NCBI GenBank assembly: GCA_024654065.1
Contig: JANLIQ010000076.1
Coordinates: 1-44,109 of the forward strand
From: Candidatus Berkelbacteria bacterium
GTDB lineage: Bacteria > Patescibacteriota > UBA1384 > 2-12-FULL-50-11
Reading direction: 5' to 3'
DNA: 44,109 bases
The notes beneath the pieces are model-generated. The model was given only the letters and a program-made list of their open reading frames with translations. It was not told where the DNA came from and searched no databases. Position numbers and translations under genes: made by a program. Below are positions 1,086 through 36,111 of this stretch, piece after piece. The stretch's first letter is position 1. Each line of letters begins with the position of its first letter.

Positions 1086-1322
1086 CTAAAAAAGATTCTG
1101 ATTAATGTCTATCTCGATGGTCTTCTGTTTACTTGTTTCGCCTCTTTTGATCGTAAATAGGCTTTTTGGAAGCTTAAGATAGTTCGCAAGCAGTACGATC
1201 GTTGCCTTGTTAGCCTTTCCTCCAACTGGCGGTTCGGTAACCGAAACTAAGTAATGTTTCGCGTCTATCTGCTCAACATTAGCGATTCTCGAACTTGGCT
1301 TAACTTTCACAAATATCTTCAC
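1086..1322 (-). CDS. DUF167/UPF0235 (YggU-like) protein
   Basis: VKVKPSS..V.VTEPPVGGKAN..LA.Y..I.RGETSKQK motif. Confidence 0.9.
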   Translation of the reverse strand: MKIFVKVKPSSRIANVEQIDAKHYLVSVTEPPVGGKANKATIVLLANYLKLPKSLFTIKRGETSKQKTIEIDINQNLF

Positions 1323-1323
1323 C

Positions 1324-1899
1324 TTAATGACTGCTAATCTTCTCAGACATTTCTAATACTGCTTGCAGAACCTCGGGAAGCTCTTTGATACCTTCTACGC
1401 CAGAAAAATGTTCCCAATTATTATTCTTGATCAGCCTTGCTCCCAAATGTTGTTGAAATTCGTAAGCAGACTCAACACGGACGTAATTGTCCCTTTCTGA
1501 ATAAACTGCAACGAAGTATGGGCAATGAAGTAAAATCTTCGGGTAATTTAAGCCTTTCTCATAATACTTTTGAAGAATTGGGATTGGATGCTTTAGCGCA
1601 CCGCTAAATCCGGCTACCATCACTACCCCTCCGATCCTTTGGCTATCAGGTAGCGTTTCTAGATATTTCAAGATCGTATAGCACCCCAAGCTGTGGCCAA
1701 CTAGGTATGTCTCTTCGTCTGGTAGTCCGATAAGTTCTCTTAAGGTTAAAAGCCATTCATCCAGCTTTGGGAGTGCTGCGTGTGGCATTTGTGGCGCAAA
1801 AACCTGAAAGCCATTTCTCTCCAACTGTTGACGTAGCCACAGCTGCCAGCCCTCACCCGGCTTCCCTTCCCACCCATGAATAATTACCGCTCGCTTCAT
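1324..1899 (-). CDS. RBBP9/YdeN family alpha/beta hydrolase
   Basis: IIHGW, W..WL, LVGHSLG nucleophile elbow, S..D.YV and a C-terminal HF. Confidence 0.9.
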   Translation of the reverse strand: MKRAVIIHGWEGKPGEGWQLWLRQQLERNGFQVFAPQMPHAALPKLDEWLLTLRELIGLPDEETYLVGHSLGCYTILKYLETLPDSQRIGGVVMVAGFSGALKHPIPILQKYYEKGLNYPKILLHCPYFVAVYSERDNYVRVESAYEFQQHLGARLIKNNNWEHFSGVEGIKELPEVLQAVLEMSEKISSH

Positions 1900-1958
1900 G
1901 GAGCTATGATACCAAATTATTTTAATCAGATTCTAAACTCCCAAAGAGAAGTCGCCTC

Positions 1959-1987
1959 TTGACTAAAAAGCAAGTTTCTTGTAATAT
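1959..1987 (+). promoter_or_regulatory. Sigma70-type promoter for the 2028 ORF
   Basis: TTGACT-17 nt-TAATAT. Confidence 0.55.
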
Positions 1988-2027
1988 TCTTGTCACGTGA
2001 CATTGAGTCACTAAGGACGTACATACG

Positions 2028-2504
2028 ATGTCAGATCTGTTCGTAGCCCCAACAAAACCTGGTTTCCAGGTCCTTCTCGACTCCATAAGCGAGCTCAGTT
2101 CGGATTCTCCTAAGCCCAACTCTGGACGTTTTGCGTTCAGCAACCTAGAGGCGCGGGCGAGGGAGTTCATCCCCCCGGAAAGACGACAGGAAGTTTGCGA
2201 TGCCGTCTACGAGCTTGGAGACAAGATCGGGAATATGACGGACGGTTGCCTTCTACCAGACGCGATCACAGGCTTTCTTCTTCTTCAACTGGGGCCCGAA
2301 GAGCTAGCCGAGCTTCTCAAGAGTAAGGGTGGCAAGTGGGAGCTGAGGAAGTGCGAGCACCATTGCAACCAAGCTTATCACGCTTACACGACCGACCCCG
2401 AACGTCTACGCTCGTCGGCAGGCCGTGCCGCTGAGCAACTGGCAAACATGATTTTCTCCGATCTGACCGAGGTGTCGAGAGTACACTTCATCAGGCTGGA
2501 GTAA
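2028..2504 (+). CDS. Hypothetical protein (158 aa) with CEHHC motif
   Basis: ORF with upstream promoter and TAAGGA SD. No recognised family. Confidence 0.6.
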   Translation: MSDLFVAPTKPGFQVLLDSISELSSDSPKPNSGRFAFSNLEARAREFIPPERRQEVCDAVYELGDKIGNMTDGCLLPDAITGFLLLQLGPEELAELLKSKGGKWELRKCEHHCNQAYHAYTTDPERLRSSAGRAAEQLANMIFSDLTEVSRVHFIRLE

Positions 2505-24973: not shown

Positions 24974-27454
24974 TCAAGACGAGGTGGTAAAAACAATCCT
25001 CAGCAGTTCCTGGTAGAGTGCGGTTGGATTACTTGCAAATAAAGAATCGTATTCAACATTAAATGGACCAGTCAACGAAATTTTACTGGGTAATCTAATT
25101 GAATTCTTAGCAATAAAAATACCTTTAACTTGACCACTTGGAACATTTTTGAAAATTATTGTCCCATCATTACTACTTGAGCTCCGACTTAAAGCAGTAT
25201 AAGCACCGCAACCAACGAAATCAGTATTGATATTTATTTTCCCGTGAACGATAAAACCGAGACGAGTACTATCCTCACAAAGAAGTCTTCCGTTGATATT
25301 AAGATCCCCATTTATAACAATCGTACCAGCTCCATGGAAAGTAACCGAACCTAGAGTTAAGCTATTATTTTCGATTTTCCAAATTTTACCCTCAGGAGGG
25401 GAAGAAAAAGTACTACTATTACTATTAGTTGGAATATTTGTATCTGAGTTTAAAAACCAATTAGCTCCATAATAACTTCCGCCACTTACCCCAGTACCAA
25501 GACCTTGACCCTTTGCATAAAGAGCACCCAATTTGAGACTAATTCGGTTCCAATCAAATGTTTCTGATTGACCATCAATATAATCATCGAGTTGATTAGT
25601 CGAACCCTGAACATTTACCGAACCTCCTACTGCTATTGCCTTAGAGTCAAGCGTGAAACCAGCTACTTGTTCGGGTGCAGCCACATTGCCTTCGACATTT
25701 ATTTGGCTAACATCGATCGGTATTCTTTGTAATAAAGTTTGGTTAATTGGGTTTCCTGGACGCTCGGTGGGATTATTTAGAGTTAGTCTAGATCGCAAAC
25801 ATAGGTTAGTCGCCACATCTTCTTGAGCTGGAACACAATCTGAGTCTCCAAGAAAAGTATGATCAAGAGATTGTGGTTGGTTTCTAAGAGATCCGACAAT
25901 ATTATTGAAAACAGCAAACGTCACCCGTTCTTTATATGTTAACCTCACGCCCCAATTCTGAATTCTGGGATCATCTAAATTAATTCCGTCACCCTTAATA
26001 ATATCTTTTATGGTTAGCCGGAAGGTATTATCAACTAAGTTGTTATTGACCCGATCCACACTTATTTTTGGTGAACAAAGACTGTTTGTCATAAAACAAA
26101 GGCTGGTTTCGTCGAATGTATAAAGCTGATCACCAAACCGTAATCGATCAGGGGTATAAATCTGGCTCGTAGGTAAGTTGATCTGCAAACTAGCCGGATC
26201 TGGCAATATCCCACATTTGTCTCCGGGAAATGATTTAAGCGAACTAATTGGGGTTCTCCAAACTTTAGCAACATTTGTCGAACCTTGATTAGTACTGCCC
26301 GTTCCTCGACCCTCGGCAATAAAGATATTGTCTTTATGAATGGCTATATCAGTAACCGAGTAGCCTCTAAACTCCGTATCCCTCCGATCGATAGAACGAT
26401 AGAAGTATGAATCGGAGCCTACCGGCAAAACATGTGAAGGACAAGCCCGATAAAAATCTCCCTCTTGCGTCCCGATCATTAGCTGACGATCAGTCAATGC
26501 CCGCAGGGATGTGACAGCACCCTTACTGAAACCATAGCTGTTGCCGGGGCAATGTTGTGAGCTTCCCTCCAGGAAGCAAGTCGAGTTCAATTTTACATAA
26601 GTAACCCCATCCCAAGTTTGGTAAAGAGTATCAGATACGCCATTTGCCCTTTTTGATAAACCGACGTAATTAATGCCAAATAATTCGGCGGACGAGCCGA
26701 TACATTCTGTCATTGTTCGAGGAAGACCATCTGGGAAATATGATTTCCAGCTATTGGCATTGCCATTGTCAACAGATCTGATAAGTCGACAGCCAACGGT
26801 TCCTTGGCCTGAATTCAAAAATGATGCAAACAGAGTCTGTCCGATTGAGAAAATGTGTTGAATAGCATAATAGCCGCTGCTACCTAGACCATCAGTAACT
26901 ACCTGTTCCCAATTGGGGTTTCGTGGATCTTCAGTATTTTTCAGCCGCCAGATTTGAGCTCCATCGTAATTACGGGTTCCGGCATAGAGATAGTCACCGA
27001 AAACTGCAAGTGACGTAATCTCTTTATTTCCAGGATTAGGCCAGGGGGGAGACGGTAATTTAGTGTTGAACCATGTATTTAAATTCGGGTCAAACGCAAA
27101 CACATATGACTTGCCCGCCCCTATGGCTCGTGATCCAGCGTAAACATACTTCGTACCATCGGTATTAGGAAACTCAACCAAAGAAGTAGTTTTATCACCA
27201 CTAACACCACCTAAATTGCCTGAAGGGAAAAATAGGTTGGTCGTTTGACGAACCTGGGCACCGTTGGTATTTTCCGTTCCAGCCATTAAGGTATCTCCGT
27301 ACGAAAGAAGTTTCGTAGCACTAATATTTTCTGATTGTCCAAAACCAAAATCACTAGCACTACTCCAATTGTCAGCTGCTTGAGCTGTCATCGGCCTACT
27401 AAAGACGCTAATAACTATTAAGACTGCCAATAAGACTTTACTTACTTTCTTCAT
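24974..27454 (-). CDS. Large secreted/surface protein: beta-propeller-like N-terminus plus conserved C-terminal domain
   Basis: Signal peptide (..AQA). Repeated blades (LLSYGDTLMAGTENTNGAQV; SLAVFGDYLYAGTRNYDGAQIWR). C-terminal PPEGKIW, FHGAGTI, GIFIAK and NPTALYQELLRIVFTTSS. Confidence 0.8.
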   Translation of the reverse strand: MKKVSKVLLAVLIVISVFSRPMTAQAADNWSSASDFGFGQSENISATKLLSYGDTLMAGTENTNGAQVRQTTNLFFPSGNLGGVSGDKTTSLVEFPNTDGTKYVYAGSRAIGAGKSYVFAFDPNLNTWFNTKLPSPPWPNPGNKEITSLAVFGDYLYAGTRNYDGAQIWRLKNTEDPRNPNWEQVVTDGLGSSGYYAIQHIFSIGQTLFASFLNSGQGTVGCRLIRSVDNGNANSWKSYFPDGLPRTMTECIGSSAELFGINYVGLSKRANGVSDTLYQTWDGVTYVKLNSTCFLEGSSQHCPGNSYGFSKGAVTSLRALTDRQLMIGTQEGDFYRACPSHVLPVGSDSYFYRSIDRRDTEFRGYSVTDIAIHKDNIFIAEGRGTGSTNQGSTNVAKVWRTPISSLKSFPGDKCGILPDPASLQINLPTSQIYTPDRLRFGDQLYTFDETSLCFMTNSLCSPKISVDRVNNNLVDNTFRLTIKDIIKGDGINLDDPRIQNWGVRLTYKERVTFAVFNNIVGSLRNQPQSLDHTFLGDSDCVPAQEDVATNLCLRSRLTLNNPTERPGNPINQTLLQRIPIDVSQINVEGNVAAPEQVAGFTLDSKAIAVGGSVNVQGSTNQLDDYIDGQSETFDWNRISLKLGALYAKGQGLGTGVSGGSYYGANWFLNSDTNIPTNSNSSTFSSPPEGKIWKIENNSLTLGSVTFHGAGTIVINGDLNINGRLLCEDSTRLGFIVHGKININTDFVGCGAYTALSRSSSSNDGTIIFKNVPSGQVKGIFIAKNSIRLPSKISLTGPFNVEYDSLFASNPTALYQELLRIVFTTSS

Positions 27455-27805: not shown

Positions 27806-29344
27806 CTAACGGTTTTCCAAAACAACGCTTACCGCCGAAGGCAGGTAACTTACTAGACTAATTCCTTCGGGGAGGGTGAAATCAGATAATTTGATCGTAA
27901 TGGAATATGTCCCAGCCGACTGATAAGGCGAAAGGCTTAGTTTAAGTTTGGCTGTACCGTCTGCCAGATTACTTAAAATTGTTGACGGTCCAGAAACTAA
28001 GACTGAAACTGAGCTTGGCGTAAGAGAAGTTACTTTTAGAAGTGAGCTTAATCCATCGTACTCAATTTCGGGAACGATGGTTTTTACCGTACTAGTAAGT
28101 TCTAAGTCGATCTTGGCACTTATTTTGCTAGTTCCGTCCGCAATGGTAACACCTGAGGGTAAAGATAAAGTAATTGAAACAGTAGTATTACTACTCAGAG
28201 CAGCAACGGGAATTGGTTCTGTTGGAATCTCAGTTAAATTAGCTAGTTGATCAGCTGAGCCCGTAACGGTCACTACTGATGGATCAACGATAATAGATTT
28301 GATCCAAAAACCACTTGCGGGTTGACCTGATGTAATTGGACGAATGCCAACGGTTTTCAAATTTCCAGCTTTTACCAAATTAATTGTGGCCTCAACTTCA
28401 GTTGGATTAAAACTGACCGAACCAATAACTTCACCAGCAGAATTAAGGGCAACTAAACTAAACTTCTGAATTATTTTTTGGATTTCTCCATTTAATTTAA
28501 CTTGAATAAATGCTTGAGATAAATTAGTTAAAACAGATTTTGGTCCCCTTGCTTCAACCTTCAATGGCTCATAGGTTGGTTCATCGGGTACTAAATCATT
28601 TCCAGCTTTACCAGAAAATTTAGCTATTACGGTCACAGTTTTTTTAATAACAGGTTCAACAGTAACTACAACATTACTGGGGTTAATCCTAACTATTGTC
28701 ACATCTTGAATTTTAGAAGTTAGTTTTACCGGCAGGTCGTAAGTTCCTTCTCCACGAGCGGCTACATCGACAGTAGCGGAAAAGTTATCTGCCGTTAAAG
28801 ACTTCCACTTATTATTTTGGGCACTAACAATTATTTTTGTGTTTACTTGGCTACCAAAGCTTGCTGCCATTCCTTCAGGAAGATTGACAGCCACCAATGG
28901 AACACCACTTGGAAGTTCGGCAGTTTTGGCTCCGATACCACTAACTAATCCCACAATTAAAAAAGAACCTATTAAAGAGAAAAAACCAATAAGAAATGAA
29001 TTCAAATATGGTGGTTCAGAATTGGTTAGGCTTGCCTTGTTACTAAATAATCCCAACCATCGATCATCTAAATAAAGTGGTAAACCTATAACTAGTAATA
29101 CTAAACCGAATTGGGCTAATACGTGGAGACCGGGAAGAGTAATGTAGGCACTAATAACGAGTAACGAAAGAGCTAAACCAATTAAGGAAAAATAGTTTAT
29201 ATTCTTCCTAGAATTAAAAGTTCGCACAATCAAGTACAAGATTACCGCTACCAGTAAAATATCAAAAGAAAAATATAACCAACGTGTGGTGTCACCAACA
29301 CCAAACTGCAACCATCCCTGCCAGATATCTTTCAGCGTCTGTAT
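27806..29344 (-). CDS. CdaR/YbbR-repeat protein fused to a CdaA-like N-terminal TM region (no DAC catalytic domain)
   Basis: N-terminal DILLVAVILYLI followed by hydrophobic helices. YbbR-type repeats follow (A.VD....EGTY.LPV; P..V...GP.S.L; P..VTVTGS). Start probably ATA 29344 after AGGAGG; the ORF track gives TTG 29383. Confidence 0.8.
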   Translation of the reverse strand: MQTLKDIWQGWLQFGVGDTTRWLYFSFDILLVAVILYLIVRTFNSRKNINYFSLIGLALSLLVISAYITLPGLHVLAQFGLVLLVIGLPLYLDDRWLGLFSNKASLTNSEPPYLNSFLIGFFSLIGSFLIVGLVSGIGAKTAELPSGVPLVAVNLPEGMAASFGSQVNTKIIVSAQNNKWKSLTADNFSATVDVAARGEGTYDLPVKLTSKIQDVTIVRINPSNVVVTVEPVIKKTVTVIAKFSGKAGNDLVPDEPTYEPLKVEARGPKSVLTNLSQAFIQVKLNGEIQKIIQKFSLVALNSAGEVIGSVSFNPTEVEATINLVKAGNLKTVGIRPITSGQPASGFWIKSIIVDPSVVTVTGSADQLANLTEIPTEPIPVAALSSNTTVSITLSLPSGVTIADGTSKISAKIDLELTSTVKTIVPEIEYDGLSSLLKVTSLTPSSVSVLVSGPSTILSNLADGTAKLKLSLSPYQSAGTYSITIKLSDFTLPEGISLVSYLPSAVSVVLENR

Positions 29345-29356
29345 ATCCCCTCCTAG

Positions 29357-29391
29357 ATTTAAGTATCGAGTATCAAGTGTCAAGTTTCAAG
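29357..29391. repeat. Five imperfect tandem heptamers
   Basis: ATTTAAG TATCGAG TATCAAG TGTCAAG TTTCAAG. Confidence 0.7.
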
Positions 29392-29422
29392 GGCGCTATT
29401 ATTACTAACAGACGTCTGAGTC

Positions 29423-29451
29423 TTGACGGCATCTACATACCGTGGTATGGT
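29423..29451 (+). promoter_or_regulatory. Sigma70 promoter of the candidate sRNA
   Basis: TTGACG-17 nt-TATGGT with a TGn extension. No plus-strand ORF downstream. Confidence 0.6.
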
Positions 29452-29457
29452 AATCTT

Positions 29458-29542
29458 ACAAATGGCCTTCGGGCTTTAGTCTGCGCAAGCAGACTAGGTA
29501 AATGCAAGGGAGCGGTCAGAGTAAATCTTTGGTCGCTTTTTT
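29458..29542 (+). ncRNA. Candidate ~85-nt structured sRNA convergent with and overlapping the PemK-like toxin gene
   Basis: GGCC(TTCG)GGCT, TAGTCTGC(GCAA)GCAGACTA, then terminator AGCGGTCAGAG taaat CTTTGGTCGCT TTTTT. Confidence 0.6.
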
Positions 29543-29908
29543 GATTCTTATAATCGAACTTTCCTTGGCAAGAGTGATTTTGTCTGTAAGGCGCTTAGAA
29601 CTAATGAGTCGTAACTGGGAAATCATAGCTGCACGGGTCTCTCCGTCGTTAGCTAAACACTCAACATAAAATCGGTTATCTTTCATTTTGGTCGAAAGAG
29701 GCACAGCCCAGAAAAGGAATTGATTAAACTTTCTTAGTATAATAACCGGCCGGCTAAAGGACTTGCCCTTACCATCTTCCTCGTGCCCAACATTAGCTCC
29801 GAGACGACACCACCAAATCTCTCCATCGCGAAAATATGATAATTGAACTGATTTCTCCTCTATACTCCCCTTCGCTTCGTGCCATTTCTTGTAATCCCGT
29901 TTCGTCAT
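29516..29908 (-). CDS. PemK/MazF-like toxin (orphan, CPR type)
   Basis: GEIWWCRLGANVGHEEDGKG..FSRPVIIL..WAVPLST..AMISQLRLISSKRL. Confidence 0.85.
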   Translation of the reverse strand: MTKRDYKKWHEAKGSIEEKSVQLSYFRDGEIWWCRLGANVGHEEDGKGKSFSRPVIILRKFNQFLFWAVPLSTKMKDNRFYVECLANDGETRAAMISQLRLISSKRLTDKITLAKESSIIRIKKATKDLL

Positions 29909-30007
29909 CTATTTTTCAGCATAACAAAAAAGTTCAGTGGAAAGTGTTGACTTTCGAGAACGAATTCATTATAAATACTGCATCTTCGGCCCTAAAGGAG
30001 GAACCCG

Positions 30008-30424
30008 ATGACGAACAACACCTTAAAACTAGTAGTCGCCCTGGATTGTATTCGCAACGAAGTGTGTAGTGGCATCAGTTCTAACGGGGGCGGAGCCGCA
30101 ACTGAAAAGCAGTTTAGAACTCTACACTCCAGTTTGTTCATAATAGCTGACGCCCTTAATATCGACGAGCAAACAATGTTTGCTGATTGGGGCATTACAA
30201 AAGAGACCTGGCGTCGATGGCAAAAAGGCAAACAGTATCCCTCGCTCTGGTCTCTACTGGGCCGTGAAAAAAGTCTGGTCAACTTGATCGAGCGTAGGAC
30301 GTACCTGCCGAGAGACCTCATGCGCGATGCAGCAAGAGAGTTCTATCAGGTTGTCGGAAGACTAGTTTCCCAGTTGCCTGCGGAAAATCTTTTTCCACCG
30401 CATGGGGAGATATGTGGGATGTAA
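30008..30424 (+). CDS. Hypothetical protein with XRE/Cro-like HTH
   Basis: IDEQTMFADWGITKETWRRWQKGKQYPS. Promoter TTGACT-17-TATAAA, AAGGAGG SD and a terminator. Confidence 0.6.
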   Translation: MTNNTLKLVVALDCIRNEVCSGISSNGGGAATEKQFRTLHSSLFIIADALNIDEQTMFADWGITKETWRRWQKGKQYPSLWSLLGREKSLVNLIERRTYLPRDLMRDAAREFYQVVGRLVSQLPAENLFPPHGEICGM

Positions 30425-30452
30425 GGATGGCTTATGACTGCCCTTCGAATCT

Positions 30453-30485
30453 GCCCTGGCGCACACCGCGCCAGGGCCTCTTTTT
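30453..30485 (+). terminator. Intrinsic terminator
   Basis: GCCCTGGCGC acacc GCGCCAGGGC ctc TTTTT. Confidence 0.8.
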
Positions 30486-30673
30486 ATAAATGAGATATCG
30501 TGAGGCATGACCCATCAAAAGCAGGTCAGTGAGCGGTTTTTCACCATATTTCGTTAGAGAAGCGGGTGGAGGTAGGGATCGCGAGGGGGTAGGGGGCGGC
30601 TTCGCAAATCAGCCCCCTGGTCCTCGGTTGAAGCCAGGTGGGCGCAGGCCACAACAGTTAGCTCGAAGTAACT

Positions 30674-32377
30674 CTACTCAACACTAATTTTGATAAAGGC
30701 TAGGACATCGCCTTTTTCTAATTCAGGAGCGCCTTCCATACCAACTCCACATTGTTCACCAACTTCGGCTTGATCAACAGCAACTTTACCAATCTTTAAA
30801 CCAGTCATTTTAGCCTTCCCGATTTCTTCTTTATCGCGGTAAGCAACAACTTCATCGCTCATCGTCACGATGCCTTGAGTAACATCTCCACCAGCAATAG
30901 CAATACCTTTTTTCTGAGAAAAGACTTGCAAAATTTTTAGTCGTCCTGTCTCTTCACGCACATAAACTGGAGTAGCAATTTTCTTTAATTTTTCCGTTAA
31001 AAGATCTAGAGCTTCATAGATAACCCAAAACTCACGTAATTCCACTTCTTCTTTTTCGGCTAAGTCCAACATGCGTTTTGTTGGAGTCGAACGAAATGCA
31101 ATGACTAAGGCCTTCGCCGGTTTAGCTAAATTAATATCATTTTCGTTAATCGCTCCAATGCCACTTGAAAGTATCTCAACTGTCGCATCTTTGATTTTAA
31201 GTTTAGAAATCGAATCCTCAAGTGCCGCTAAAGAACCCCCAACATCAGTTTTTAAAACTATTCTTAAGTGATTATCGTTTTCGTCTGTTACCGCTTTGGA
31301 TGTAGTTGCCGTTTGAACCACCATTGTTTTAGCGACTTTTTCATTAGGTGCTGTTATCAGACGATCACCAAATATTGGTACATTTTTTAAACCCATAATT
31401 ACAACCGGAGTGGCTGGTCCAGCAGTGACAATATTACGCCCTAGATCATTTTCTAATACTTTAATCCGACCATATGTCCCACCCGTAACAACGACCTGAC
31501 CAGCTCTGAGTGTTCCGTTATAGATAAGGACGGTAGCAATTGGACCACGTTGTTTATCCATATTGGCTTCAATAACAATGCCTTCGCTTGGAGCCTCAGG
31601 ATCAGCTTTAAGCTCAAGTAAATCGGTTGTTAAAATTACCATTTCAAGTAACTGATCCACACCCTTACCAGTCTTAGCAGAAACGGGGACGACTACAGTT
31701 TTACCACCCCATTCCTCGGGGGCTAGATCATTTTCGACTAATTGTTGTTTGACTCTTTCGATATTTGCCCCAGGTAAATCAAATTTATTTATTGCAACTA
31801 TAACCGGTACATTAGCGCTACGAGCATGGTGGAGAGCCTCAAGAGTCTGTGGTTTGACACCATCATCAGCTGCAACTACTAAAATAACTAAATCCGTAAT
31901 ACTTGCTCCGTGAGCCCTCAGAGCCGAAAATGCTTCGTGACCAGGCGTATCCACAAAAGTAATTTTTCGTTTACTTCCTTCTGAGGTTTTAAACTCAATC
32001 TGGTAAGCACTGATATGTTGGGTGATCCCACCAGATTCACCACCAGCAATGTTAGATTGTCGGATAAAGTCTAATAGAGAAGTTTTGCCATGATCAACAT
32101 GACCCATTATCGTTACGATCGGTGGTCGGGCAATTGAAGATTTTGTATCCGTACTTTTAGTAAAAACATTTGTTGCTACAACTTCTTGTTCGGCTGTCCA
32201 CCCAAATTCCTCGACCAATAGTGCTGCAGTATCATAGTCAATCGACTGGTTAATTGTTGCCATAACACCGTTTTTTATCAACTTACCAATCACGTCAGTA
32301 GCACCAACCTTCATTTTATCTGCCAACGCTCTGACGGAAATAGATTCCGGTAATTGGAGAACCTTTTGTTCGGCCAT
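30674..32377 (-). CDS. infB: Translation initiation factor IF-2 (compact)
   Basis: [35 protein letters not shown] and NKFD. Confidence 0.97.
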   Translation of the reverse strand: MAEQKVLQLPESISVRALADKMKVGATDVIGKLIKNGVMATINQSIDYDTAALLVEEFGWTAEQEVVATNVFTKSTDTKSSIARPPIVTIMGHVDHGKTSLLDFIRQSNIAGGESGGITQHISAYQIEFKTSEGSKRKITFVDTPGHEAFSALRAHGASITDLVILVVAADDGVKPQTLEALHHARSANVPVIVAINKFDLPGANIERVKQQLVENDLAPEEWGGKTVVVPVSAKTGKGVDQLLEMVILTTDLLELKADPEAPSEGIVIEANMDKQRGPIATVLIYNGTLRAGQVVVTGGTYGRIKVLENDLGRNIVTAGPATPVVIMGLKNVPIFGDRLITAPNEKVAKTMVVQTATTSKAVTDENDNHLRIVLKTDVGGSLAALEDSISKLKIKDATVEILSSGIGAINENDINLAKPAKALVIAFRSTPTKRMLDLAEKEEVELREFWVIYEALDLLTEKLKKIATPVYVREETGRLKILQVFSQKKGIAIAGGDVTQGIVTMSDEVVAYRDKEEIGKAKMTGLKIGKVAVDQAEVGEQCGVGMEGAPELEKGDVLAFIKISVE

Positions 32378-35300
32378 TATTTCTTCCCCTTTGGCTCTAC
32401 AATCTCCTCGGGCGAAACTTCGTCGGATTCGTTGACAACTGTCATGGAGACAACTTTGTCATTACCACTTGAGCGCATTAAGATAACACCCGAAGCTTGA
32501 CGTGATAGTTTTTTTACAGAAGCAATTGGTATTCGAATAACTTGACCCGTATCTGAAACAATAATTAAATCTTTAGACTGTTTATTGATAACTGTCCCAC
32601 CTGCCAGTAAACCAGTTTTAGGTGTTAATTTGGCTATTCGGATACCGCTTCCACCACGATGCTGGTTGCGAAATTCTTTAACGTTAACTTTTTTACCAAC
32701 ACCATTTTTCGAAATTACACAGATAGCCTCAGATTCATCAGTTAGAACAGTTGTTTCGATTATTTCGTCGTCTCCTTTAAGCCGCATTCCTCTTACCCCT
32801 GAGGCGCTTCGACCCATTACCCGAGCTTCTGACTCATTGTATAAAATAACCTGTCCATTTTTCGTCATTTGAGCAATCTCATCGCTCCCAGTAGTTCGTT
32901 TAACCCAAAGTAAAACATCTTTTGGTTTCAGACCAATAGCGATCACTCCACTTTTACGAACATTTTTAAATGCTTCAGTCGCAACACGTTTAACTACACC
33001 TAATCTTGTTGCAAAGAAGAAAAATCCAGCTCGATTTTTATCCGACATTGTGATTAAGGCCGTAACTTTTTCTTCGGCTTCAATTCGAATTAAGTTAGGT
33101 AGGGCAATACCCTTGCTTTGGCGACTAGAAGCTGGAATTTCGTAAGCTTTAATAGTGAAAACTCTTCCGGCATCGGTAAAGAACATAATATCGTCGTGCG
33201 TTGAAGCAAAAACAATATCAACAACAGCGTCATCCTCACGCGTTTGCATCCCAATTACACCTTTACCACCTCTTTGTTGGCTCTTATAGGTATCGGCCGG
33301 AAGACGCTTGACATAGTTACCCCGAGTCAAGCTAATTAAGACAGACTCTTCGGGAATCAAATCTATAGCCGTAAGTTGACCCAGAGCTTCAGGACGAATT
33401 TCAGTTTTACGCTCAATATTAAACTTAGCTTTCATTTCCAATAACTCGTCCTTAATAATTTTTTGAATTCTCGCTGGCTTAGCAAGAATGTCTTCCAAAT
33501 CAGCAATTAGTTTCAAAATTGCATCATATTCATCGTAAATTCGCTGACGTTCGAGATTAGCTAATTGGGACAAACGCATTTCCAAAATAGCATTGGCCTG
33601 TATCTCAGTCAGTTCGAACTGCTTCATCAATTCGGTCTTAGCCTCTTCCCGATCTTTAGAAGCTCGAATTAATTTAATGATGGCATCAAGATGATCAAGA
33701 GCAATCTTTAATCCTTCTAAAATATGGGCCCGAGCTTTGGCAATCTTCAAATCATATTCAGTTCGACGAGTAACAATAGTTATTCTATGGGCTAAGAACT
33801 CGCAAAGGACTTCCGTGACATTAAGTAATCGCGGCTGGATTCCGTCAATTAAAGCCACTAGATTATAATGGACAACAGATTGTAATTCAGTTAGCTCATA
33901 TAGTTGGTTTAAGATTTTTGAGGCCATCGCTCCAACCTTTAGCTCGACTACCACCCTCACACCATCTTTTTGATCCGACTCATCGCGAAGATCACTTATA
34001 CCCTCGATTTTTTTACTTTTGACCAAATCAGCAATATGAGTAACAAAAGTCGCTTTATTTGTTTGATATGGAAGTTCACTTACAATAATCCTGTTTCGAT
34101 TTTTCTCTTCTTGAATTTCTGCTCGTCCGCGTACCACGACTCGACCCCGACCAGTTGAAAGAGCTTCCTTAATATCATTTTGACCGTAGGCAATTCCTCC
34201 AGTAGGAAAATCAGGTCCCTTAATGATTTCGATTAATTCATCAACGTCGGCTTCTGGTTTTTCTTGTAATAAAAGTAACCCATCTATTATTTCACCGACA
34301 TTGTGAGGAGGAATATTTGTAGCTAAACCTACAGCAATTCCTTGCGAGCCATTAATTAACAGATTAGGCAAGCGCGCCGGTAAGACTACTGGCTCTTTGT
34401 GGGTACCATCGTAGTTGTCTTGAAAGTCCACCGTGTCTTTGTCAATGTCCGCCAAAAGGGCTTCTGCGGCGCCGACTAACTTTGCCTCGCTGTACCTCAT
34501 GGCCGCTGCCGGATCCCCATCCATCGAGTTGTGGACAAAGATACCGCTCGCTAGAGCAAAGTTATGACTGCCTTCAATAGTCAGATCGAATACATCTTCC
34601 CGCTCAGCTAATACTTTAATACTAATAACTTTATGGTTCTGATTGATCGAATGCAAAACTAAATTAGGATCGTTGTCGTAATATTTATTAAGCCCTATTT
34701 CCCATTTAGTTGCGCCGCCGTAATTGTACAACTCAGTTCGTTTCTTCTCATACAGTTCCTTATTGAGAGGTTTTTTATCGTTCAATACGGCCCTACAGAT
34801 GTTTAGAAACTTTGATTTACCCGTAAGATTCGTAAGTCGTCTTTTATTTGAAGCGACAATCTTTTCGTGAAAAATTTGTCGATACTCCGGCACTTGCCAT
34901 AGTCTCTTCAAGGTCTTTGAGCCACGGGTAGCTAGCTCGAGTCGCTTCTCGGGGTGGTTCTTGACAAACTCCTTATTAACCGCACTGAGAAAGAGTCGCA
35001 TTTTCTCCTGATAGGCCGGATCCTGCCAATTCTTCAGGTTTCTTTCAGACAGTCTAGCCCCATATTCTTTTCGATTTTTTGGGTCAGACCAGAATGCGGC
35101 TCGACCAATAGCTATTTTTTGTCGATATTCCTCATCTTTATGCAGTTCAGTAGCGTGTTGGTAATGAATTTCCCAGTGATCGCCCCATTCAACCCTTAAA
35201 ATGTTATCAGGATTATTGTTGAGCTTATTAAAATCGACATGATGCCTCACTCTTCCCCTGCTCTTGGAGTAGATTCCCTGGGTAAGGTTGTAATTGTCAG

Positions 35301-36111
35301 CCATGTGATGGGCCGGAACCCAGGTCTGGGTTTTGTTTTGATATATGAGTCGATAACCTTTTCTCTTGAGGCGGTCTTCTTCTGTAGAGAGCTTTTGGTA
35401 CAATGGCATTAGCGATTGGCCGGTGGTAAGATCTCGAGCTTCCTTATAGGAGCCGTCCCTCAACATAAATCGATGGTTTGGCGTACACCTTATCCTCGCA
35501 CCGTTATCAAGCCGAACTTCAATTAACTCGGCTTGAGTTTGGGTTAAGCGGGGCTTCAGGATTTCTGCGATCGAGATTAAGCCAGAATTATTAACTGTGA
35601 AAGTATAGTTTTTCTTACCGTCTTGATACTCTCTGACTAAATTCTCAAAACTAAGATTTCGGCCGTCTGCCAGTAATACCTCCGTGTCTTTGGTGAAACA
35701 ACCAAAATTACCTTGACCGTTAACAAGTGGCATTCGTAAACTCCACCATTGAGCCATTCTTACCATGGCTTCATAAATTGATGAGTCGCCATGAGGGTGG
35801 TAAAGACCCATAACTTGACCGACAATTTTTGCCGATTTTTGGTGCTTGGAATTGGCCGACAAGCCCATCTCACGCATAACATAAAGGATACGACGTTGAA
35901 CAGGTTTTAATCCGTCTCTAACATCAGGCAGGGCTCGAGCAACAATAACGCTCATGGCGTAATCTAAATAAGACTCGCTCATCTCGTCGTGAATCTGTCG
36001 TGGTTTAATTACACCGAAGTCAGTTTTTTCAGGCATCACTTTAACACTCTTATTGAGAGTATTGGGCTCGCTATCAGCTTGTCGATCTTTTTTTTCTACT
36101 TCTTCAGCCAT
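32377..36111 (-). CDS. gyrA: DNA gyrase subunit A, intein-containing
   Basis: [26 protein letters not shown] catalytic Tyr and GyrA-box QQRGGKG. Confidence 0.98.
34528..35700 (-). mobile_element. Intein (391 aa) with HNH-type homing endonuclease
   Basis: GQGNFG|CFTKDT...RCTPNHRF...[15 protein letters not shown]...H...[16 protein letters not shown]|SMDGDP. Confidence 0.93.

Follow-up and report, generated by a model that had tools for sequence, protein, structure and literature searches.

The stretch analysed here, which we call the window, is the whole 44,109-nucleotide contig JANLIQ010000076.1 from the genome of a Candidatus Berkelbacteria bacterium (assembly GCA_024654065.1; 770 kb in 77 contigs). 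It carries on the minus strand a gene for a toxin of the MazF/PemK fold, and directly past the end of this gene, on the plus strand and converging on it, a predicted small RNA (sRNA) with its own promoter and a terminator that reaches into the toxin reading frame. As judged from comparison of homologous loci, toxin and sRNA are a dedicated RNA-protein gene pair, and the sRNA is probably the negative regulator or antitoxin of the toxin. The pair consists of the following features:

29423-29451, plus strand: promoter of the sRNA, with the -35 element TTGACG (29423-29428), a 17-nt spacer containing TG and the -10 element TATGGT (29446-29451), from a promoter scan
29458-29543, plus strand: predicted sRNA of ~85 nt with three hairpins, convergent to the toxin gene, from fold z-score, covariance model and covariation
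29458-29463, plus strand: 5' tail of the sRNA, ACAAAU
29464-29475, plus strand: first hairpin (H1), GGCC-UUCG-GGCU
29476-29497, plus strand: second hairpin (H2), 9 bp with a GCAA loop
29498-29504, plus strand: A-rich linker
29505-29543, plus strand: third hairpin (H3), a terminator of 17 bp followed by U6, from a terminator scan
29516-29543, both strands: overlap of the H3 3' arm and U-tract with the TGA stop and last 8 codons of the toxin, from the sequence and the open reading frame (ORF) call
29516-29908, minus strand: gene for the MazF/PemK-fold toxin, 130 amino acids (aa), with a family-specific N-terminal helix and invariant W9 and K13, from Pfam, profile search, AlphaFold2 (AF2) and Foldseek
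29918-29926, minus strand: TGtTATGCT, an extended -10 element for the toxin gene, 9 nt upstream of its ATG, read from the sequence

A first-pass annotation of the window had described this layout as a convergent unit with a promoter at 29423-29451, a UUCG hairpin, a GCAA hairpin and a terminator with a U-tract overlapping the last ~8 toxin codons, and all of these parts are present: H2 has 9 bp, H3 spans 29505-29543 and the overlap takes in the TGA and 8 codons, with the U-tract of the sRNA complementary to the Lys-Lys codons in the toxin gene. The plus strand is favoured, as had also been proposed, by its G-U pairs and tetraloops and by its folding energy, with -37.3 kcal/mol for the plus strand of 29456-29545 (z -5.35, equalled by 0 of 200 shuffles) versus -19.9 kcal/mol (z -2.53) for the complementary strand. 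The sRNA is single-copy in the window's genome. By itself the promoter scan does not significantly exceed chance (4 sites vs 2.9 expected); homologous loci repeat the TTGAC-type -35 element, the spacing and a TAnnnT box 6–8 nt upstream of the RNA 5' end.

It is the conservation and covariation at these homologous loci that decisively raise the sRNA above chance. We compared 80 loci from species-representative genomes (at least 595 relatives among 599 pattern matches) and 80 from metagenomes (568 of the 598 listed). A simple pattern for the sRNA 5' end occurs downstream of the toxin gene and antisense to it in 133 of 164 loci, usually 44–66 nt beyond the toxin stop. A covariance model built from 8 sequences (R1) produced 55 matches at E <= 1e-7, every one antisense to the toxin 3' end, and the rebuilt model (R2) found the RNA in this position in 46/80 and 68/80 loci, or 114/160 together; the sRNA of the window scores 96.5 bits with R1 and 82.1 bits with R2. 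When the remaining 46 of the 160 loci were inspected by eye, 38 turned out to have variant RNAs, 2 were cut by a contig end and 6 had no RNA (L006, L027, L063, L071, and L032 and L132, which are identical in sequence; labels of this kind are our own). At the 38 variant loci a promoter is followed by the 5' tail-H1-H2 plan in altered form, and they divide as follows:

10 loci: variant RNAs that start with CUAUACGGCUUCGGCC
9 loci: variant RNAs with a CUCCGAG junction, in which H2 doubles as the terminator
14 loci: variant RNAs that start with ACAAAUUGSC
5 loci: variant RNAs of other forms

MAFFT with RNAalifold on the raw sequences missed H2, the 3' arm of which fell out of register, and the alignment produced by the covariance model was used instead. 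Over its 50 distinct rows, 98.2% of the pair cells are standard pairs, as against 74.2% after shuffling (0/500 as high) and 34–48% in slid controls, and both sides have changed in 18 of the 23 pairs (H2 8/8, H3 9/11 and H1 1/4). RNAalifold run on this same alignment recovers H2 and H3, with 21/23 pairs compensatory; G-U pairs are frequent on the plus strand (38 GU at columns 7–27, for example) and the loops are UUCG and GNRA tetraloops. On this comparative evidence the hairpins are maintained by compensatory changes. The first-pass annotation had stated that its proposal would fall if no conserved, covarying motif lay downstream of homologous toxins, and such a motif is found there. It had, moreover, suggested a nucleotide-level conservation past PemK-like genes of the candidate phyla radiation (CPR), and this proves correct: the conserved RNA 5' end ACAAATGGCC, when reverse-complemented and read in its three frames, gives the tails RPFV, EGHL and KAIC.

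The pattern is well seen in a family-level relative from a different genus (G013), where the toxin is 62% identical and is flanked by unrelated genes, on the upstream side a MarR-type ORF and on the downstream side one of 442 aa. Past the toxin stop the reverse strand reads TTGACA-17-TAGGGT-8-AUAAAUGGCCUUCGGGCUUU, its H2 retains the GCAA loop with five pairs changed, four of them on both sides, and its terminator overlaps KKAIKDLL*. Carriers are Saccharibacteria, Paceibacterota and other Patescibacteria, and further carriers are metagenome-assembled genomes (MAGs) labelled Rickettsiales, Bdellovibrionales, Gammaproteobacteria, Chitinophagaceae, Saprospiraceae, Caldilineaceae, Trueperaceae and Sulfurovum; the closest named relatives of the window's genome among the collected loci are Saccharimonadales and Saccharibacteria MAGs. 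The comparison with Rfam that the first-pass annotation had suggested returned no Rfam 15 family for the sRNA: cmscan of window positions 28500-31000 at E <= 10 gave no relevant family, and cmscan of related loci gave none for the sRNA in 7 loci (E <= 1) and 2 loci (E <= 5).

Two other readings of the RNA were tried and rejected. A small peptide could be read from it in the window (AUG GCC UUC GGG CUU UAG), but the AUG is missing from the ACAAACGG variants, and so the sRNA contains no conserved ORF. For H1 as a mimic of 16S rRNA, GGCCTTCGGGC occurs three times in the genome and no rRNA-like context was seen.

The toxin itself is readily placed. The 130-aa ORF matches PemK_toxin (Pfam PF02452) with E 4.1e-11 and 43.5 bits (cut-off 23.1) and PHROG 9567, 'MazF-like growth inhibitor', at 6e-14, while NCBIfam and PADLOC hold no model that matches it. 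A PDB search with a profile of 30 family members found B. subtilis EndoA/YdcE, B. anthracis PemK (MoxT) and S. aureus MazF at about E 1e-6. The AF2 model, with a predicted local distance difference test (pLDDT) score of 82.8, contains an N-terminal helix (residues 6–18), a MazF-type barrel and a disordered loop (38–48), and its top Foldseek matches in the PDB are MazF-mt1, MazF-mt9 and the B. cereus, S. aureus and E. coli MazF proteins (E ~1e-6, template-modelling score 0.6–0.7). All of 30 sequences have R53 and either S or T at position 72; the two positions align to R25 and T48 of EndoA, which we take to be catalytic residues. According to the predicted structure and this alignment, the toxin has the MazF fold with the catalytic Arg and Ser/Thr positions kept. 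The C-terminal IKKAIKDLL is kept across the family and reads KKATKDLL* in the window. The clade comprises 1120 clusters at 50% identity (E <= 1e-10), and the N-terminal helix belongs to it, since nearly all of the best 150 clade representatives align from about residue 1–9.

The element TGtTATGCT, reported by the first-pass annotation 9 nt before the ATG, is present at 29918-29926, and the toxin mRNA is predicted from it to be leaderless or near-leaderless. In the family at large, a TAnnnT box ends 5–10 nt before the start in 69/143 toxin upstream regions, versus 17–30 in slid controls, and a Shine-Dalgarno-like tetramer precedes the start in only 11/143, so that leaderless mRNAs appear typical of these toxins. 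At the other end of the gene the complement of H3 has, on the toxin strand, an A-run before it and no U-run after it, and we therefore expect the toxin transcript to continue into the RNA gene. In one toxin subfamily we also observed a conserved terminator-like hairpin (CTGGTAATTTTTACCAG, then a T-run) that ends ~10–15 nt upstream of the ATG and resembles an insulator before a leaderless gene; upstream terminator-like hairpins are found at L139, L059, L025, L030, L043, L132, L136, L146, L157, L034, L126 and L142.

Between the toxin ATG and the neighbouring divergent gene (30008-30424, plus strand) there are 99 nt, which leaves no space for a co-transcribed mazE-like antitoxin; the lack of room for MazE/PemI next to a divergent upstream gene, already remarked on in the first reading of the window, is thus real. 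It is not an annotation gap either, because a canonical mazE-mazF pair exists at another place in this genome (L003, G000:C37), with a 111-aa PemK/MazF at 1489-1824 (minus strand) and an overlapping 82-aa AbrB/MazE-like ORF at 1806-2054 (minus strand). The 114 same-strand ORFs ending within 150 nt upstream of the toxin fall into 99 clusters with 4 members in the largest, and the 71 divergent upstream ORFs fall into 70 clusters, neither set containing a conserved partner. An adjacent, co-transcribed antitoxin of the MazE/PemI type, as in type II systems, was found neither in the window nor across the loci. The RNA is, in the sequences compared, the only conserved neighbour of the toxin clade across several phyla.

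These data bear on one alternative, that the hairpins are mere transcription signals (a terminator or insulator) and that the antidote is a protein, either the helix-turn-helix-like product of the divergent gene, orf138, or one encoded elsewhere. H3 is indeed terminator-like, orf138 was inserted together with the toxin and has by eye an XRE-like WGITKETWRRWQKGK stretch without a family match, and for the Myxococcus toxin MazF-mx neutralisation by a distant regulator has been reported (PMC4803016). However, a terminator needs neither a promoter of its own, nor a conserved 5' tail, nor H1, nor an H2 with 8/8 covarying pairs. The 138-aa orf138 product has no match in Pfam, NCBIfam, PADLOC or PHROG. 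It has no homologue at any other locus compared and is not the general antitoxin, and neither strand encodes a conserved protein upstream of the toxin. We regard this explanation as very improbable.

The association of the two genes can also be followed where they are duplicated or separated. Two toxin paralogues lie within ~1.5 kb of each other at 8 loci (L117, L119, L022, L124, L034, L041 and L142/L145), and at L034, L041 and L142/L145, where the model scored, the second RNA match sits at the 3' end of the second toxin. Over 151 genomes of the class, R2 gave five places: the window and G013, both with the toxin, an orphan in G005, which belongs to the same genus as the window, and two false matches, the plain terminators of G143 and G093. 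The G005 orphan (L167, G005:C2:72300-75400; 1508-1572, plus strand) is a 5' tail-H1-H2 unit with a promoter, and its first 40 nt are nearly identical to those of the L096 RNA.

The pair forms part of a small island. The features around it are:

29400-30498, both strands, edges approximate: island of ~1.1 kb with the sRNA, the toxin gene and orf138 with its terminator, from junction comparison
27806-29383, minus strand: ybbR, one flank of the island
30674-32377, minus strand: infB, the other flank
30008-30424, plus strand: orf138, a divergent ORF of 138 aa outside known families, co-inserted with the module
30453-30477, plus strand: terminator of orf138 near the right edge of the island, from a scan

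Four genomes of the same genus lack the island: infB and ybbR are direct neighbours there, infB being the upstream one, and the intergenic sequence on the flanks can be aligned. No flanking direct repeat was found at the island borders. The toxin is distributed patchily, being present in 3 of 61 related genomes (the window's genome and 2/60 relatives). Plasmid homologues, in 12 records, occur in Nitratiruptor, Helicobacter suis and Campylobacter jejuni (pVir), and those of all three also have convergent units of promoter and hairpins. A tblastn search of a phage collection at E <= 1e-8 returned no toxin match. Beyond infB, the window encodes at 32377-36111 (minus strand) a 1244-aa GyrA-like ORF with a large insertion ending in ..VHNS, which looks intein-like by eye.

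What, then, would the pair do? We somewhat favour the view that the module is a compact, horizontally mobile pair, in which a leaderless-type gene for a MazF/PemK-fold endoribonuclease is accompanied by a convergent ~85-nt sRNA as its cognate antitoxin. In such a module the sRNA would be made constitutively from its near-consensus promoter, and the toxin transcript, which has no terminator on its own strand, would enter the RNA gene. Because it reads into that gene, the sRNA could pair with the 3' end of the toxin mRNA and with its 3' untranslated region (UTR), over at least 28 nt in the window and up to the entire RNA, and this pairing would silence or destabilise the mRNA in the way known from 3'-overlapping type I systems. 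The part outside the overlap (5' tail, H1 and H2) would serve the stability of the RNA, and direct binding of this part to the toxin, similar to that in type III systems, may come in addition. Loss of the module or a halt in RNA synthesis would free the RNase, resulting in addiction or abortive defence.

As to the mode of control, cis-antisense is favoured by the strictly kept convergent orientation and spacing and by the leaderless toxin mRNA, since an mRNA that offers no target in a 5' UTR fits control from the 3' end. As in the cis-antisense arrangement of type I systems, the RNA is predicted to overlap the last part of the ORF by 28 nt, and its convergent position is conserved. Antisense pairing may well be the main mode, although we would put its chances at a little short of even. 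Direct binding of the RNase is favoured, or at least allowed, by the conservation of the 5' tail, H1 and H2 across phyla, by the tetraloops, by the variants that end at the stop and by the G005 orphan; that protein binding is the main mode seems to us rather unlikely.

Several observations weigh against the proposed antitoxin pair or its antisense mode. RNA variants B, C and D are recognisable only up to the toxin stop or short of it, so that overlap with the ORF is not universal and antisense control would there rely on unproven read-through of the toxin transcript. The UUCG and GNRA loops differ from the U-turn loops typical of antisense recognition, and conservation of the RNA is highest beyond the overlap, a pattern that fits protein binding at least equally well. 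The covariation was measured on an alignment fitted to the model and containing many near-duplicate loci (55 rows, 50 distinct), and in H3 it is mixed with coding constraint. L032/L132, which are one sequence, have an intact toxin without RNA, while in G005 the RNA is genuine, yet there is no PemK gene anywhere in this 92% complete genome. Finally, H1/H2-like motifs occur near NYN and DUF3800 genes, and the 5' module may therefore not be toxin-specific.

Some of these points would be accommodated if the pair worked in the type III manner throughout, the folded RNA (5' tail, H1, H2 and A-rich linker) binding the MazF-like dimer as a pseudo-substrate or decoy, perhaps after cleavage, and convergence merely linking the two genes. 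The best-conserved part of the RNA is non-overlapping, common across phyla and held by covariation, variants B, C and D apparently stop before the ORF, the stable tetraloops suggest a scaffold, and the RNA is kept as an orphan in G005. The N-terminal helix, with its invariant W9 and K13, could be an RNA-binding addition to the toxin, and the two tandem RNA cores of L066 recall ToxI repeats. On the other hand, the orientation and the distance to the stop (43–66 nt) are almost invariant, which a purely trans-acting protein binder would not need. A word shared by the 5' tail and the linker after H2 is only marginal (mean longest common substring 3.19 vs 3.02 +/- 0.08, with 131/5000 shuffles as high), and there is no excess of matches of at least 4 nt between the two. 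We consider it doubtful that decoy binding of this kind is the explanation. L066, from a MAG labelled Rickettsia typhi, has its two cores (ACAAAUUGG..hairpin..hairpin..GACUAA) downstream of one toxin and is the sole tandem case that we saw.

A number of related elements were observed in the course of these comparisons. Directly after the G005 orphan comes a second promoter and a structured stretch (1600-1728, plus strand) with a terminator, which converges on a DUF3800 gene (1729-2331, minus strand; Pfam 2.3e-7) with an IS200-like transposase alongside; the stretch has no match to a DUF3800 motif of Rfam. In the window's genome, the element at ~1430-1560 (plus strand) of L179 (G000:C34:1500-4200) has ACAAUGGCUUCGGCCUCG, a hairpin and CAAAC, which resemble the 5' module of the RNA; it lies divergent to a gene for an NYN domain (Pfam 2.7e-14) and ends in a terminator-like hairpin, and over its full length its fold is not more stable than those of shuffled sequences (z -1.37). 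A gammaproteobacterial MAG has an Rfam DUF3800-IX RNA (L039, 329-398, minus strand; 43.2 bits vs a gathering cut-off of 36.8) 2 kb from a toxin-RNA module. In L006 (G002:C17) a distant toxin, 36% identical, lies at 1474-1893 without downstream RNA. Upstream of it on the same strand (1200-1400, plus strand) TTGACA-17-TATGCT is followed by a 176-nt multi-hairpin element with a terminator (z -8.0), and the unit of ~0.75 kb looks like an insertion, being flanked by a second copy of the preceding gene's 3' end (..TGTADYITTGTF). The toxins of L063 and L071, two further loci without RNA, have C-terminal extensions of ~40–70 aa with a common RVPNGS-like motif, which could be another control route.

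There is also the question of whether the pair is a toxin-antitoxin system at all. It could be a functional ribonucleoprotein or an enzyme-substrate pair, that is, a processing RNase with a dedicated RNA or an RNA-sensing defence effector with an RNA cofactor. The accessible part of PMC5737381 describes the DUF3800-I to XI, drum and skipping-rope RNAs as each tied to one protein family, with no function assigned, and here similar H1/H2-like RNAs adjoin DUF3800 and NYN genes. Against this, the residues that catalyse cleavage in toxic MazF RNases are retained in the protein, addiction modules typically show just such a patchy spread on islands and plasmids, and tandem paralogous modules occur. 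A role of this sort is in our opinion improbable.

Beyond the antisense-controlled pair that we prefer, it is conceivable, if speculative and on balance unlikely, that the module is a novel composite, in which a single structured sRNA both inhibits a MazF-fold RNase directly, with the 5' tail, H1 and H2 as pseudo-substrate or decoy, and silences its leaderless mRNA from the 3' end, the scaffold perhaps being reused with NYN and DUF3800 genes in the ultra-small CPR genomes. If so, this would be an unclassified and very widespread type of toxin-antitoxin system and would offer a function for some orphan protein-associated RNA motifs.

In any case, a large clade of 'orphan' MazF proteins, with clade relatives in at least 595 species-representative genome stretches, gains a concrete, conserved RNA partner with covariation. 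The old puzzle of solo toxins becomes a directly testable two-gene system of ~600 bp, which would add an RNase toxin to the RNA-controlled toxin-antitoxin systems, and its RNA defines a family that Rfam does not contain. For Saccharibacteria and other members of the CPR, in which regulation by sRNAs is almost wholly unexplored, it offers a point of entry. That solo toxins are abundant, and that a small RNA is a possible antitoxin for them, was noted by Makarova et al. (2009; PMC2701414).

How new the pairing is depends on a published system. CjrA/CjpT is described as a type I system with an antisense sRNA antitoxin on the pVir plasmid of C. jejuni (Shen et al., 2016, Mol Microbiol 101:909, as cited in PMC7826846 and PMC10470494). 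At 30630-31034, pVir has a 34%-identical gene of our toxin family (product WP_011117588.1) without an annotated partner, faced by a convergent TTGATT-17-TATAAT promoter and then three hairpins; the pVir RNA differs from the present one in lacking the ACAAAYGG-H1 5' module. The pVir sRNA Cjpv2 is listed at 25244-25412 (IA3902 pVir), and the matching region of the 81-176 pVir contains small hydrophobic ORFs. The published CjrA/CjpT may be the pVir member of the present toxin family. Our literature search turned up no description of a convergent sRNA for a MazF/PemK toxin, the primary account of CjrA/CjpT being outside its reach. The first-pass annotation had proposed a candidate new RNA-antitoxin system: the convergent, covarying sRNA and the absence of a conserved protein partner lend partial support to the second half of this phrase, while the pVir homologue and CjrA/CjpT make its newness uncertain. 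If CjpT is the PemK-family gene, the kind was known from one plasmid, and what is revealed here is its breadth over several phyla and a distinct conserved RNA class; if it is not, the pairing of this toxin with a convergent sRNA is undescribed.

Among characterised systems, the nearest in layout are txpA/RatA, bsrG/SR4 and bsrE/SR5 of B. subtilis, type I systems with convergent antisense RNAs that overlap the 3' end of the toxin gene. The present module shares with the txpA/RatA type an antisense sRNA with its own promoter that converges on the toxin 3' end, a terminator within the overlap and the lack of a protein antitoxin. The toxins of that type are, however, small hydrophobic membrane peptides, whereas here we have a soluble 130-aa protein of the MazF fold; in addition, the non-overlapping part of the RNA is here conserved across phyla in both sequence and structure, and some variants may not overlap the ORF. 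Enzymatic toxins are known from the type I systems SymE/SymR and RalR/RalA, which resemble the module proposed here in placing a nuclease-type toxin under an sRNA antitoxin. They differ in toxin fold and in the way the RNA works, which is at the 5' region or through short pairing in trans and not as a conserved convergent 3' unit.

In the type III systems ToxIN, CptIN and TenpIN a tandem-repeat RNA lies upstream of the toxin in one operon, with a terminator in between. The likeness here is that a structured RNA would counter an RNase toxin, that the ToxN fold is distantly similar to Kid/MazF and that A-rich single strands flank the RNA. In contrast to type III, the present RNA is a single unit (two in L066), lies downstream on the opposite strand and has its own promoter, and the top Foldseek matches of the toxin are MazF and not ToxN. 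With type II MazEF/PemIK the module shares the toxin fold, the Pfam family and the catalytic positions, but it has no MazE/PemI gene and its clade has the added N-terminal helix. The Rfam 'pemK' motif lies upstream of pemK genes in Firmicutes. The DUF3800-I to XI, drum and skipping-rope motifs, RNAs with 3' terminators linked to protein families (Weinberg, 2017; accessible part of PMC5737381), are alike in being conserved structured RNAs tied to one protein family and often carrying a terminator; none of them matches the present RNA by cmscan in the window region and nine related loci, and 'pemK' has 0 occurrences in the main text of that paper. We file the module as a kind of RNA-controlled toxin-antitoxin system that is not type I, II or III as these are defined.

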